Virus record (IMG/VR): IMGVR_UViG_2585427784_000003
Span: 1 to 12,258 of that record
Length of the DNA stretch: 12,258 nucleotides
From: a virus
Taxonomy: Duplodnaviria; Heunggongvirae; Uroviricota; Caudoviricetes
Reading direction: 5' to 3' (one strand)
Every line of letters starts with the position of its first letter. The stretch's first letter is position 1. The notes under the pieces were generated by a model. That model saw nothing but the letters and a program-made list of their open reading frames with translations, had not been told where the DNA came from and searched no databases. Made by a program: the position numbers and the translations under genes. Below are positions 5,685-10,390 of the stretch, piece after piece.

Positions 5685-5906
5685 TACCAGAACATGCGGG
5701 CCAATGCGCTTACTGATGCGGAATTACGGCGCAAGGCTGCCGATGAACTGACTTGTATGACCGCGCGAATTAACCGTGGTGAGGCGATACCTGAACCAGT
5801 AAAACAACTTCCTGTCATGGGCGGTAGACCTCTAAATCGTGCACAGGCTCTGGCGAAGATCGCAGAAATCAAAGCGAAGTTCGGACTGAAAGGAGCAACT
5901 GTATGA
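5685..5906 (+). pseudogene. P: 3' remnant of replication gene P (C-terminal ~74 codons); an ATG at 5694 gives a 70-aa ORF
   Basis: Plus-strand frame reads YQNMRANALTDAELRRKAADELTCMTARINRGEAIPEPVKQLPVMGGRPLNRAQALAKIAEIKAKFGLKGATV then a stop, matching the lambda P C-terminus from memory. It begins directly at the bet junction, and the stop overlaps the ren start. Confidence 0.85.
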
Positions 5907-6479: not shown

Positions 6480-6512
6480 ACGCCACTAGTTACTGAGAGT
6501 AACTAATGGCGT
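6480..6512. repeat. Near-perfect 15-bp inverted repeat (acgccactagttact / agtaactaatggcgt, one mismatch, 3-nt loop) in the AT-rich spacer
   Basis: Read directly from the sequence. It lies about 45 bp beyond the 3' end of the HD-domain gene and about 300 bp after ren. It may be a terminator or a protein-binding site. Confidence 0.3.
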
Positions 6513-6554: not shown

Positions 6555-8102
6555 CTACTTGTCTTTTTTAATATGATCAATCTCATCATTAAGACATTTA
6601 TCTATTTTTTTTATTAACACATTAATTTCTTCGGTGTTTTGGAGTTGAGTTGTCTTAGAAACAAAAACTCGAATAAAGAATTTAACATAGTGATAGGGTT
6701 GAAGTACATCGTTATACTTACATAAATCATTTATTGTATACTTGCCGCCTGTTTCTTTTTTTATTATTTTAGCTTGACTTGTATCGATATCTTTAAAGTT
6801 ATCTTCAATCTGAAAATCAAGAACCCATTCATCTCCTTTTAAATTATCCTCAATGATTTTGTTGATTTTCTTAGATATATTTTGTTTATATTCTTTGTAT
6901 CTGTTGTCGGAAATGTTAACATTAGAAAACGTGTGTTTTTTTTCATATATTTTTTTCCAAACATTTCTATCAACAATATCTTGAATTATAGCTTGAGAAT
7001 TTTTATCTAATGTGTTTTTAAGAGTGTTTTCTAAAAACGTTTTGTCTGGGTTTTCACGATAAAAGTGTTTGATGGACTCAATGAGAGTGTTTTTAGATTT
7101 TAAAGAGACAACATCATCAGTTTTTTTTCTAGAACACGCTTTGTTAAGCATCGCAGATAGTGCACGATTGGTCTTATGAAAATAAACTTGACTATAAAGC
7201 CCACTTCTTGCATTGGCAAATTCTAGTATTGAATCCATACCACTTTCTTTATATGCCAGGTAAACACTATTTTCAACTTTCACAGGAATAAATGACATTA
7301 ATAATCGTCCATAATCATAAATCCCATATTTAACGCCGGAGAAGTAGCTATCTCTAAGTAGGTAGTCCATTCTGTCCGCATCTATAGGTGAAGATGATAT
7401 GATTGAACCTAATAAAGGATATACATTTACTCCCTCAATGTTATTTTTAAAATCATATCTTTTATCAACAATTTTTATAATGCTTTCTGGATTAATAGCC
7501 GCTATGTTTTCTTTATAGACATCGTCGTCATTTGATTTATCTTGGGCTTCATTTTTTAATTCTTCAATAATTTCTTTAATAAAAATACATGATACTTGTT
7601 CGTGGGTTAACTTGTCATTATCACTTAAAGATATAATCTTATCGTATTGTTTATTTCCTTCAGTTTTGCATTTTTCTTTGAAATCTTTTACGGATATTGC
7701 AAAACTATCGAATTGGTGGGCAAGTGGGCCATGCCCAACATCGTGTAACAATGCTGCAATACGTAACTCCTGTATAAGACTTGAAGGCATTTTTTTTATA
7801 TCTAAATATAGATCAATGCCCATATTTTTTCGATTGTAAATTAGTGCATTTATATCAATATTTTTTAATATTTCATACGATAAATGCATTACACCGACAG
7901 AGTGTTCAAAGCGAGAGTGCATTGCAGAAGGAAATACTTTATATAGAAACGTGTTCTGCCTGATATCTCGTAGTCGTTGGAATAAAGGATGGTCAATTAT
8001 CTTTTTTTCTAGCTTAGTTATTCGAATCACTCCATGTATGGGATCTAAAAACTTCCCCAGAAGTAAGTCTTCAAAGTTCTCAAGTTTGTTTTTGTTTGTC
8101 AT
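6555..8102 (-). CDS. HD-domain dNTP triphosphohydrolase-like protein (SAMHD1/dGTPase family) with a long K/N/D-rich C-terminal extension, 515 aa
   Basis: Motifs seen in the translation: PLFQRLRDIRQ...HSRFEHSVGV, LLHDVGHGPLAH and DADRMDYLLRD, the metal-binding H...HD...D set of SAMHD1/Dgt-type enzymes. Ribosome-binding site aaggaaa precedes the ATG at 8102. The gene is visibly AT-rich. Confidence 0.85.
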   Translation of the reverse strand: MTNKNKLENFEDLLLGKFLDPIHGVIRITKLEKKIIDHPLFQRLRDIRQNTFLYKVFPSAMHSRFEHSVGVMHLSYEILKNIDINALIYNRKNMGIDLYLDIKKMPSSLIQELRIAALLHDVGHGPLAHQFDSFAISVKDFKEKCKTEGNKQYDKIISLSDNDKLTHEQVSCIFIKEIIEELKNEAQDKSNDDDVYKENIAAINPESIIKIVDKRYDFKNNIEGVNVYPLLGSIISSSPIDADRMDYLLRDSYFSGVKYGIYDYGRLLMSFIPVKVENSVYLAYKESGMDSILEFANARSGLYSQVYFHKTNRALSAMLNKACSRKKTDDVVSLKSKNTLIESIKHFYRENPDKTFLENTLKNTLDKNSQAIIQDIVDRNVWKKIYEKKHTFSNVNISDNRYKEYKQNISKKINKIIEDNLKGDEWVLDFQIEDNFKDIDTSQAKIIKKETGGKYTINDLCKYNDVLQPYHYVKFFIRVFVSKTTQLQNTEEINVLIKKIDKCLNDEIDHIKKDK

Positions 8103-8460: not shown

Positions 8461-9804
8461 TTAAATTGCATCTGCAAACTCTGGGATTTTTCGCTCAAGT
8501 ATGATTGATGAGTTGCTGTTGTCGCTTTTTTTATTTTCATGATTACGAATAGCCAATGACTCATTAAAGTCTTTTGCGACTGCTGTCTCAATAAATTCAA
8601 TTTCTGAATCAGAGTGTTTTTTAACAGCTTCTTTGATCTCATCCAGAGTAACATAGAAAAACTCTTTTCTACGATTTACAAGATTGACTCTCTTTTTATC
8701 GAAGACATCATGTAGTTTTTTTTCTAATGATGGAGCGTCCTCCGAATAAATCATGGCATGCACATCAAAAATAAAAGGAACAGATGCATCACCAAGCTCA
8801 TTTACACGGTCTTGTGGATCAAGACGTCGTGTCATGCCTATTTTATAAACATTCTCCCCAAAAGAACCTATGTTCGAAATAATATAAACATGACCTTGTT
8901 TGGTTTGTTGTGCCATGGATAATGCTCTTTGATGCTTTGATTCAGCCTGCGACAAACTCTGTTCTAGTTCGGCAATGCGATTTTCGAGGCGCTGCTTCAT
9001 GTCACCAGTAACTTTTTCCATTTCCTTTCTTGCAGCTTCAATTGCTTTTTTATAACGGCGCTCTTCTGCCTCTGCGTCTTGCATGGCCTTTTCTATTTCT
9101 CGTTGTGCACGCTCCTCCTCTCTCATTTGTGCCCTTATTTCTGCCTGTTCTTCTTTTTCTTTCTGTTTTTGCTCACGATATTCATGGGTAAGCCACAACT
9201 CCTCAAGTTTTTTATTAAGGTATTTAGTATTTATATATATGTGATTTTGCTCGTTTAGTTTATTTATGGCCTCAAATGCCTTTGTGATGCGTTCTTCCAT
9301 TTTAGTGATATTTTTCCACGTGCAATTACTAATTGCAGCATCACATTCATTATTAAATGCTCTAGTAGTTAGCCTAATATTTCTGTCTGTCATTTTTTTA
9401 CCCTCTGCTCGAGAGCCTTCAACAGTCCATTGGGTTGTGCAATATACTGCACCAGAGTGGGTTTTATCCCGCAGCATTAATTTCTGTTCATCCCTGATGG
9501 ATTTTATTTTGTTTTTAAATTGCTCTGAATCTTCAAAATTAAAATGAGGTTCGTAAAATCCTAGTTCGGCTAGTTCAACATCTTCTGAATAAATAGAAAT
9601 TTGCTTTACTAGCTTATCATATATTTCTTTCTTCTCTTTATAAGTTCTTCTTAGTTCTTGGATTTGTTTATTGATACCATCCATTTTTTCAATGGTGTTT
9701 GTTAGTTCATTATTGGCATTTTCTTTTACTTTTTGGGACTCTTCTTTTATAATGGAGTATTCTTGCTCTGTTTTCTCAATAAGCTTCTTACATTCCTCTT
9801 CCAC
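8461..9804 (-). CDS. DUF4041 plus T5orf172 (GIY-YIG-like) protein with a central coiled coil, 447 aa as called; it probably begins upstream at 9964 (see frameshift finding)
   Basis: DUF4041-like block (...GFYEPHFNFEDSEQFKNKIKSIRDEQKLMLRDKTHSGAVYCTTQWTVEGSRAEGKKMTDRNIRLTTRAFNNECDAAISNCTWKN...), then an E/K/R/Q-rich coiled coil, then a T5orf172-like block (GHVYIISNIGSFGENVYKIGMTRRLDPQDRVNELGDASVPFIFDVHAMIYSEDAPSLEKKLHDVFDKKRVNLVNRRKEFFYV). The called start is a GTG with no ribosome-binding site. Confidence 0.85.
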   Translation of the reverse strand: MEEECKKLIEKTEQEYSIIKEESQKVKENANNELTNTIEKMDGINKQIQELRRTYKEKKEIYDKLVKQISIYSEDVELAELGFYEPHFNFEDSEQFKNKIKSIRDEQKLMLRDKTHSGAVYCTTQWTVEGSRAEGKKMTDRNIRLTTRAFNNECDAAISNCTWKNITKMEERITKAFEAINKLNEQNHIYINTKYLNKKLEELWLTHEYREQKQKEKEEQAEIRAQMREEERAQREIEKAMQDAEAEERRYKKAIEAARKEMEKVTGDMKQRLENRIAELEQSLSQAESKHQRALSMAQQTKQGHVYIISNIGSFGENVYKIGMTRRLDPQDRVNELGDASVPFIFDVHAMIYSEDAPSLEKKLHDVFDKKRVNLVNRRKEFFYVTLDEIKEAVKKHSDSEIEFIETAVAKDFNESLAIRNHENKKSDNSNSSIILERKIPEFADAI

Positions 9805-9856
9805 ATTAAAATAATCTGCAAAGCGAGATTTGTATTCTTCATTTTTTTGATTGCTA

Positions 9857-9964
9857 TCACTTAATTCTAATTGTATTTTTTTTGATGCGTTTGATTGCAG
9901 CTATATATAGAACAAGAACAACCAATAAAAATATGATTGCAAGTAATAGTGGAGTTTGAGTCAT
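9857..9964 (-). CDS. 35-aa ORF encoding a single transmembrane helix (MTQTPLLLAIIFLLVVLVLYIAAIKRIKKNTIRIK); probably the displaced N-terminus of the DUF4041 gene
   Basis: ATG at 9964 is preceded by aagga with about 9-nt spacing. The ORF ends 53 bp before the GTG of the 447-aa ORF, and the two frames differ by one nucleotide across an A8 run (coding strand; T8 at 9876-9883 on plus). Confidence 0.45.
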   Translation of the reverse strand: MTQTPLLLAIIFLLVVLVLYIAAIKRIKKNTIRIK

Positions 9965-10390
9965 TCGTGCTATTCCTTACGGACAATTTAAGACGTTTTG
10001 TATTAAATCCTGTTCAATGTGTATGCGGGTGATTGCTACCGCTTACAATCTTCATAATTATCAGTTAGATAGACTCGCTAGTAAATAATTTCATTTTTTG
10101 CAATATTCTTATTGAATATTTCAATTTATGAAATGAGCTCTTTATCCTTTCAAGGCGAAAGGTTTCTTCTTCGGAAATATTTGCTCTCGTGTGACGTATA
10201 AAGGCCTTTGATTTTTAAAAAACAGTAGGAAATAATATAGTTACTGTCGGCCTGAACACCCGGCGGTGGGGTTGCGCTAAACGGGGACGTTTATGCGCAC
10301 ATACAATCTAAACTCTCTTCTCCCTTCACAGATGCAGAAATGCACCTGCGATTTTTTGCATCCAACGTTTGACCTCTGCGGAGGTGAAGC

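Follow-up and report, generated by a model that had tools for sequence, protein, structure and literature searches.

The window (the whole 12,258-nt stretch of viral DNA analyzed here) covers the left portion of a lambdoid prophage located at the lambda attachment site next to ybhC. Its genes are arranged in the order int, xis, and exo, a gene in the ren position, a low-G+C cassette, and then ybcN, ninE, ybcO, rusA, and Q. Compared with the corresponding region of E. coli 2018-11-3CC, the window is without 4,992 bp, from inside bet to inside P, and the junction lies at approximately positions 5685/5686. The absent stretch includes gam, kil, cI, cro, the gene in the cII position, and O, and the prophage therefore is defective, without immunity or replication functions. 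The cassette is an island between positions 6500 and 10000 with a G+C content of 27 to 39%, compared with approximately 45 to 53% in the flanking prophage genes. It holds two leftward-transcribed defense genes between the ren-position gene and ybcN/ninB and is a typical horizontally acquired moron cassette.

One of the two genes (positions 6555 to 8102, minus strand) encodes a 515-aa HD-domain protein that resembles the dNTP triphosphohydrolase SAMHD1. Residues 19 to 430 of this protein matched PDB SAMHD1 chains with E values of approximately 1e-26, and weak matches to the PADLOC dGTPase model and to TIGR01353 also were obtained. It is probably a second, nucleotide-depletion defense gene. It was found beside SNIPE, the other gene of the cassette, only in the lineage that is approximately 99% identical to the window, and it is absent where SNIPE stands alone between Rha/P22AR and ren.

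Anatomy of the split gene

An earlier note on this DNA had described a 35-aa transmembrane (TM) ORF followed, in a different frame, by a 447-aa ORF. We read the minus strand of positions 9700 to 10100 and translated it in all frames, and the split-gene layout was confirmed. The 35-aa ORF, MTQTPLLLAIIFLLVVLVLYIAAIKRIKKNTIRIK (positions 9857 to 9964, minus strand), starts with an ATG at position 9964 and stops with a TGA at positions 9857 to 9859. The ATG is preceded, with a 9-nt spacer, by the Shine-Dalgarno sequence AAGGA (positions 9974 to 9978, minus strand), and it is the same ATG that PGAP calls as the start of intact SNIPE alleles. Kyte-Doolittle analysis revealed a single-pass TM helix, LLLAIIFLLVVLVLYIAAI, at approximately residues 6 to 24 (positions 9893 to 9949, minus strand); the top 19-residue window starts at residue 6 and has a value of 3.37. 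The helix is followed on the cytoplasmic side by the basic cluster KRIKK. The spacing and the hydropathy bear out the description of a TM ORF with a good ribosome-binding site. In a promoter scan, sites were no more numerous than in shuffled sequences, and one -35/-10-like site was seen approximately 90 nt upstream of the ATG.

Further inspection of the 35-aa ORF revealed that it is made up of SNIPE codons 1 to 29 (the periplasmic tip, the TM helix, and KRIKK), followed by six out-of-frame codons (NTIRIK) and the TGA. Its first 29 residues are those of intact SNIPE, and 28 of them are native up to the last unambiguous codon. The frame is lost in a run of A residues at positions 9876 to 9883 of the minus strand (T8 on the plus strand). 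In the wild type, this run is A7 and comprises the codons for K28 and K29 and the first base of I30. In the window its length is exactly eight, and the extra A shifts the frame; the one-base difference between the two frames across this run, which had been proposed previously, was read directly. A second A7 tract (gene nt 116 to 122; positions 9842 to 9848, minus strand) is unaltered in the window.

The remaining SNIPE coding sequence (codons 30 to 500; positions 8461 to 9875, minus strand) is undamaged and is displaced into the +1 frame with respect to the start codon. The 447-aa ORF (positions 8461 to 9804, minus strand), which starts with a GTG, is contained within it, and its frame is open upstream of the GTG across the run (...LQSNASKKIQLELSDSNQ...). 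We found no ATG, GTG, or TTG in this frame upstream of the GTG at position 9804 and no Shine-Dalgarno-like sequence before that GTG or before the next ATG, at position 9684, in agreement with the earlier description of an open frame without an ATG or a ribosome-binding site. A gap separates the TGA from the GTG, as had been described, although it measured 52 nt rather than 53 bp. When one A was removed in silico, a single 500-aa ORF was obtained (MTQTPLLLAIIFLLVVLVLYIAAIKRIKKIQLELSDSNQ...). The fusion anticipated at A7 therefore was found, at 500 aa and not at the length of approximately 480 aa that had been given for it. A full-length product made from the A8 template would have the trans-frame peptide IKKIQLELSDSNQK.

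Pfam analysis of the corrected 500-aa protein revealed a DUF4041 (SNIPE-associated) domain at residues 198 to 252 (positions 9208 to 9372, minus strand; PF13250, 70.4 bits, E = 1.2e-19), followed by a GIY-YIG-type nuclease domain (T5orf172/MUG113) at residues 357 to 449 (positions 8617 to 8895, minus strand; PF10544, 62 bits; PF13455, 69 bits). The nuclease domain contains the catalytic Glu, E414, whose codon is at positions 8722 to 8724 (minus strand). That joining the two frames yields a full-length homologue of a known protein is not a matter of chance.

Identity of the gene and its wild-type reading frame

The corrected translation matched the PADLOC profile PD-Lambda-1 (PDLC03976; 491 positions) over residues 1 to 485 with a score of 658 bits (E = 2e-198). 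It differs from PD-lambda-1 of phage PhiR26_1 at 5 of 500 residues, and exactly the same 500-aa protein is present elsewhere as WP_228337500.1. E223, W257, and E414 of the corrected protein are at the published SNIPE positions. A PDB sequence search with the corrected protein yielded no match. In RefSeq, the protein is named "DUF4041 domain-containing protein" and, more recently, "SNIPE associated domain-containing protein." Of 5,426 complete E. coli genomes, 131 were found by DNA search to carry the SNIPE gene, which was chromosomal in every case; a single phage record, PhiR26_1, also carries it, annotated as PD-lambda-1.

Saxton et al. (Nature 2026; PMC13190303) gave PD-lambda-1 the name SNIPE; the PD-lambda screen that they cite is where it was discovered. 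According to these authors, SNIPE is an inner-membrane-anchored nuclease composed of a TM segment, DUF4041, and a GIY-YIG domain, and its N-out/C-in topology was shown by experiment (PMC13190303). Its partners are ManYZ and the phage tape measure protein, and phage DNA is cut during injection; this defense against lambda-like siphoviruses by DNA cleavage at injection was shown only for intact SNIPE (PMC13190303). Deletion of the TM helix sends SNIPE to the nucleoid and makes it highly toxic, and the authors were unable to clone TM-less SNIPE with its native promoter (PMC13190303). In the published homologue survey, one TM segment was present in 59% and two were present in 7% (PMC13190303).

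In the intact alleles of strain WP5-S17-ESBL-11 (L001) and PhiR26_1 (L004), the TM anchor is on the same polypeptide as the nuclease; in the window allele, it is not. Judged by its sequence, the window locus is a disrupted SNIPE gene and not a functional member. The earlier proposal that the two ORFs are parts of one membrane-anchored DUF4041/T5orf172 gene was upheld, with the intact form being the rule in E. coli and in distant homologues; the fusion is real but is already known as SNIPE.

Both L001 and L004 have A7 at the position of the A8 run, an intact 1,503-nt coding sequence, and the same ATG. We searched for a 94-nt query that covers this tract in its A7 form and the next A7 tract. It was matched exactly in 121 of 127 complete E. 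coli genomes and in phage PhiR26_1. The A8 form of the query was matched exactly by only one complete genome, that of MS 85-1, which has A8 in the first tract. Six of the 127 complete genomes deviate from the A7 query; four of these were examined, and three of the four are altered in the first tract. The genomes examined in addition to MS 85-1 are SCU-313 (L025), with A8 in both the first and the second tract; SCU-482 (L024), with A10 in the first tract and two further A insertions; and EC1, which has A6 in the second tract only. SCU-482 (+3, +4, and +2) and SCU-313 (+1 and +1) come from the same project and show several A-tract changes within SNIPE. These changes look like long-read homopolymer miscalling rather than biology.

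To extend the comparison beyond E. coli, we used a set of 121 homologues, comprising the 119 best cluster representatives with less than 90% identity (obtained with the 447-aa ORF as the query) and two intact E. coli sequences. The 119 representatives are 52 to 65% identical, come from Vibrio, Shewanella, Photobacterium, and the Enterobacteriaceae, and are single ORFs of approximately 440 to 560 aa, mostly 476 to 563 aa. A contiguous TM-DUF4041 fusion, which the earlier note had suggested looking for, was found: an N-terminal hydrophobic 19-mer (a 19-residue window with a mean Kyte-Doolittle value of at least 1.6) is fused in 117 of the 121. At least 25 residues precede the GTG-equivalent position in 108 of the 121. 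Clearly, then, the homologues do not all start at that position without an upstream TM segment. Together, the complete genomes and the homologues indicate that A7, in frame, is the normal, ancestral state.

Recurrence of A8 and other disrupted alleles

A8 was found in 18 other assemblies. It is present in at least 14 loci drawn from NCBI, ENA, and Logan, namely, L003, L005 to L010, L012, L013, L019 to L022, and L025. The window is identical to contig JORW01000034.1 of GCA_000713395.1 over 4,344 nt and probably derives from this contig. By exact-sequence look-up, the 447-aa product (WP_248700034.1; KEN15152.1) was encoded by at least 14 contigs, the 407-aa product that starts from the next ATG by at least 12, and the 35-aa peptide by at least 4. 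All six of the 447-aa loci inspected (L005 to L010), which represent GCA_000713395.1 plus five separate Logan-assembled SRA runs, have A8, as do L012 (GCA_037516735.1) and L013 (GCA_022514005.1). In L019 to L022, from two ENA metagenomes and two Logan runs, A8 occurs on the other main SNIPE lineage, which is 27 nt different.

A8 thus was observed on four haplotypes: the L001 type, 352C+525T, 206A+352C (the haplotype of the window), and the deep lineage. The window haplotype also occurs intact, with A7 (WP_228337500.1; 15 contigs). Because A8 is spread over four haplotypes and the window haplotype exists in both states, the tract has changed at least twice, and probably more often, with A8 having arisen or reverted more than once by +1 slippage or reversion. 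The change in the window appears to be recent, since the downstream frame is free of further lesions and lies 2 nt from L001, with one of the two differences being nonsynonymous (C69Y).

These data bear on the notion that A8 is an artefact of sequencing or assembly and that the source strain truly has A7 and an intact gene. Homopolymers are classic sites of indel miscalls, and the multitract length changes in SCU-313 and SCU-482, which belong to one project, resemble long-read homopolymer error. However, the same A8 on the same haplotype was recovered in GCA_000713395.1 and in at least five separate Logan-assembled SRA runs, and A8 is present also in GCA_037516735.1, GCA_022514005.1, two ENA metagenomes, and MS 85-1. 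Were the errors random, they would not be expected to reappear on haplotypes that are nearly identical when the A7 query is matched in 121 of 127 complete genomes. A one-off sequencing error, which was among the explanations offered in the earlier note, is unlikely given that the identical A8 recurs across many independent assemblies. The pattern instead points to an A8 allele that is real and heritable and that was produced by recurrent replication slippage.

SNIPE is disrupted in other ways as well. Several complete genomes have an IS1 or IS5 element within it, and further natural frameshift alleles carry a change in the A7 tract at nt 116 (+1 in SCU-313 and L016; -1 in EC1), a T insertion at nt 192, a -1 change in the A5 tract at nt 230 (three complete genomes, HH45 and two others), or a -1 change in the A6 tract at nt 275. 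The loci that represent the alleles at nt 116, 192, 230, and 275, which all fall within the first 280 nt, are L002, L011, L014 to L017, L025, and L026. L021 has a second break in addition to A8, as expected for a decaying pseudogene. The gene is disrupted in approximately 6 of 21 complete genomes of the lineage nearest the window versus approximately 6 of 110 in the other lineage, with both counts being approximate and taken from the rows listed.

The first 280 nt are frameshifted in approximately seven complete genomes (MS 85-1, SCU-313, SCU-482, EC1, and the three with the deletion at nt 230). This clustering of frameshifts toward the 5' end is suggestive, but it comprises few events, two of them in suspect assemblies, and no conclusion was drawn from it. 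Draft genomes and metagenomes were sampled by way of N-terminally truncated products, so that this sample is biased toward 5' frameshifts. Elsewhere in the gene, a natural, in-frame A8 tract at nt 1241 to 1248 (window positions 8716 to 8723; T8 on the plus strand) overlaps the codons of the catalytic E414-K-K (GAA AAA AAA). It varies in 1 of 131 complete genomes, that of TB354, which has A7 there and also carries an IS1A insertion; A9 was not found at this tract among the 131. The A7 tract at nt 565 is invariant apart from the IS-disrupted TB354.

The origin of these tracts was examined by shuffling synonymous codons within the gene. The G+C content of the SNIPE gene is 35%, and AAA accounts for 45 of its 56 Lys codons. 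The gene contains five runs of A7 or longer, compared with 3.4 +/- 1.2 under the null model (P = 0.18), and a run of A7 or longer occurred at the site of the window's A8 in 62% of the shuffles. Selection of the tract for its length was rejected on these grounds. The A7 tract is a by-product of encoding I-K-K-I, part of the positive-inside cluster after the helix, in the codon dialect of the gene.

Homopolymer-switched restriction-modification genes are known in Haemophilus, Neisseria, and Helicobacter, and the A7/A8 tract might likewise be a reversible contingency switch for a costly or risky membrane nuclease in E. coli populations. The occurrence of A8 on four haplotypes, and of both A7 and A8 on the window haplotype, means that the tract has changed repeatedly or reverted, and contigs of that haplotype are similar in number for the truncated form (9 in the cluster table, 14 as read) and the intact form (15). 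The downstream ORF is unharmed, and a frameshift at this point would be a "safe" off state in which no toxic TM-less nuclease is made. Several observations nevertheless make a contingency switch improbable. The tract is short for a contingency locus and is no longer than codon usage predicts, and of 127 complete genomes, 121 match the A7 query exactly. Variation at the longer natural A8 (nt 1241) is confined to 1 of 131 genomes, so the A tracts of SNIPE are not generally unstable, and the other inactivations include IS insertions, which are irreversible. Slipped-strand phase variation, another of the explanations put forward originally, was not demonstrated by these data, although the tract is visibly mutable.

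A more specific form of the same idea is that the A7 tract serves as a "safety catch," that is, as the preferred site at which SNIPE can be switched off reversibly without producing the toxic TM-less form. This would explain why A8 occurs on several haplotypes with a pristine downstream frame and why the known frameshift alleles cluster in the first 280 nt. We consider it doubtful. If the tract were a reversible switch, it would provide an example of phase-variable prophage defense in E. coli; this is not what the present evidence favors.

Expected products of the A8 allele and comparison with known systems

Taken together, the sequence comparisons indicate that the window most likely carries a natural loss-of-function allele of SNIPE that arose by +1A slippage. 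The A7 tract, which encodes Lys-Lys just after the TM helix, would have gained one A by replication slippage. Translation from the native ATG would then terminate at the TGA, yielding only a membrane peptide of 35 residues. The other 471 codons, which encode DUF4041 and the nuclease, are intact but lack a start codon preceded by a ribosome-binding site and probably are not translated to a useful or harmful level. The A8 allele should give no SNIPE defense, and it should also avoid making the toxic TM-less nuclease.

We infer that the A8 allele is null and that its downstream frame is silent, because this frame has no start codon with a ribosome-binding site and its GTG lies 52 nt past the stop. 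The persistence of A8 in many isolates fits such silence, as an allele that expressed toxic TM-less SNIPE would not be expected to persist. Ribosomes may still slip into the +1 frame on AAA-AAA-A at a low level, or may reinitiate at the GTG downstream of the stop, and nothing suggests that any such slippage would be enhanced. Of the explanations originally offered for the split gene, an inactivating mutation is the best supported: A7 is the norm, A8 is recurrent, and rescue signals were not seen.

Under the remaining explanation, programmed recoding, +1 frameshifting by the ribosome or slippage during transcription would produce full-length SNIPE from an A8 template, giving a low dose of the nuclease. 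The sequence AAA-AAA-A would let tRNA-Lys re-pair in the +1 frame, the new A-site codon being the rare ATA, and bacterial examples are documented in which slippage at an A run rescues a frameshifted gene (PMC1088944). We regard recoding in the window as very unlikely. The out-of-frame arrangement is not conserved, since A7 in frame is the E. coli norm and all homologues examined are contiguous. There is no Shine-Dalgarno-like stimulator upstream of the run, and the zero-frame A-site codon, AAT, is neither rare (hungry) nor a stop. Nor was a downstream structure detected, as the surrounding RNA (121 nt) folds into a less stable form than do shuffled versions of it (z = +1.18). For transcription to rescue the A8 frame, RNA polymerase would have to omit one A or insert two extra. 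When E. coli RNA polymerase was assayed with reporters, deletion slippage on poly(A) was undetectable up to A8, and A runs of fewer than eight gave no slippage activity (PMC6260861). The run in the window, at eight, also is below the length of approximately 9 nt from which slippery A/T runs are avoided in a large proportion of bacterial genomes (PMC1088944). The suggestion of programmed frameshifting thus finds no support, given a wild type that is in frame at A7 and a site without a stimulatory element.

These results have consequences for how SNIPE is counted and used. The RefSeq entries WP_248700034.1 (447 aa) and WP_000348712.1 (407 aa) derive from frameshifted SNIPE genes; they are truncated models without a pseudogene flag. 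In counts of defense systems, such "DUF4041 domain-containing proteins" of 447 and 407 aa should be classed as pseudogenes. Strains with A8 offer natural SNIPE-null controls beside near-isogenic intact alleles and could be used to weigh the costs of SNIPE against its benefits in natural populations.

The A8 allele can be compared with three kinds of known systems. As in phase-variable restriction-modification genes, a homopolymer near the 5' end of a defense gene sets the ON or OFF state, and both states occur in nature. The tracts of those genes are longer, are kept against codon expectation, and show frequent ON/OFF differences among close relatives. The SNIPE tract, in contrast, is A7, is expected from codon usage, and is matched by the A7 query in approximately 95% of complete genomes.

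A second likeness is to frameshifted genes that are rescued at poly(A) tracts. Citrobacter rodentium tssM is reported to be a frameshift pseudogene rescued by slippage at a poly(A) tract (PMC4256274), and the cases compiled by Baranov et al. in 2005 likewise involve a single-base indel in an A run of an otherwise intact gene (PMC1088944). The principle is shared, in that RNA polymerase or the ribosome could in principle restore the frame. The runs in Thermus dnaX and in IS elements are approximately 9 A long, or 8 in some IS elements (PMC1088944). The window allele differs from the rescued poly(A) cases in having A8 and needing a deletion, of a kind that E. coli RNA polymerase did not detectably make in the reporter assays (PMC6260861).

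The closest system is SNIPE itself, as described by Saxton et al. The corrected product of the window has the same 500-aa layout, in which a single-pass TM helix at the N terminus is followed by DUF4041 and a GIY-YIG nuclease. The gene also occupies the same genomic niche, as a moron of a lambdoid prophage flanked by the replication genes on one side and ninB/ybcN on the other. The difference is one extra A after codon 29, by which the TM helix is uncoupled from the DNA-binding and nuclease parts, such that the protein studied by those authors is not producible from the window allele by standard decoding.
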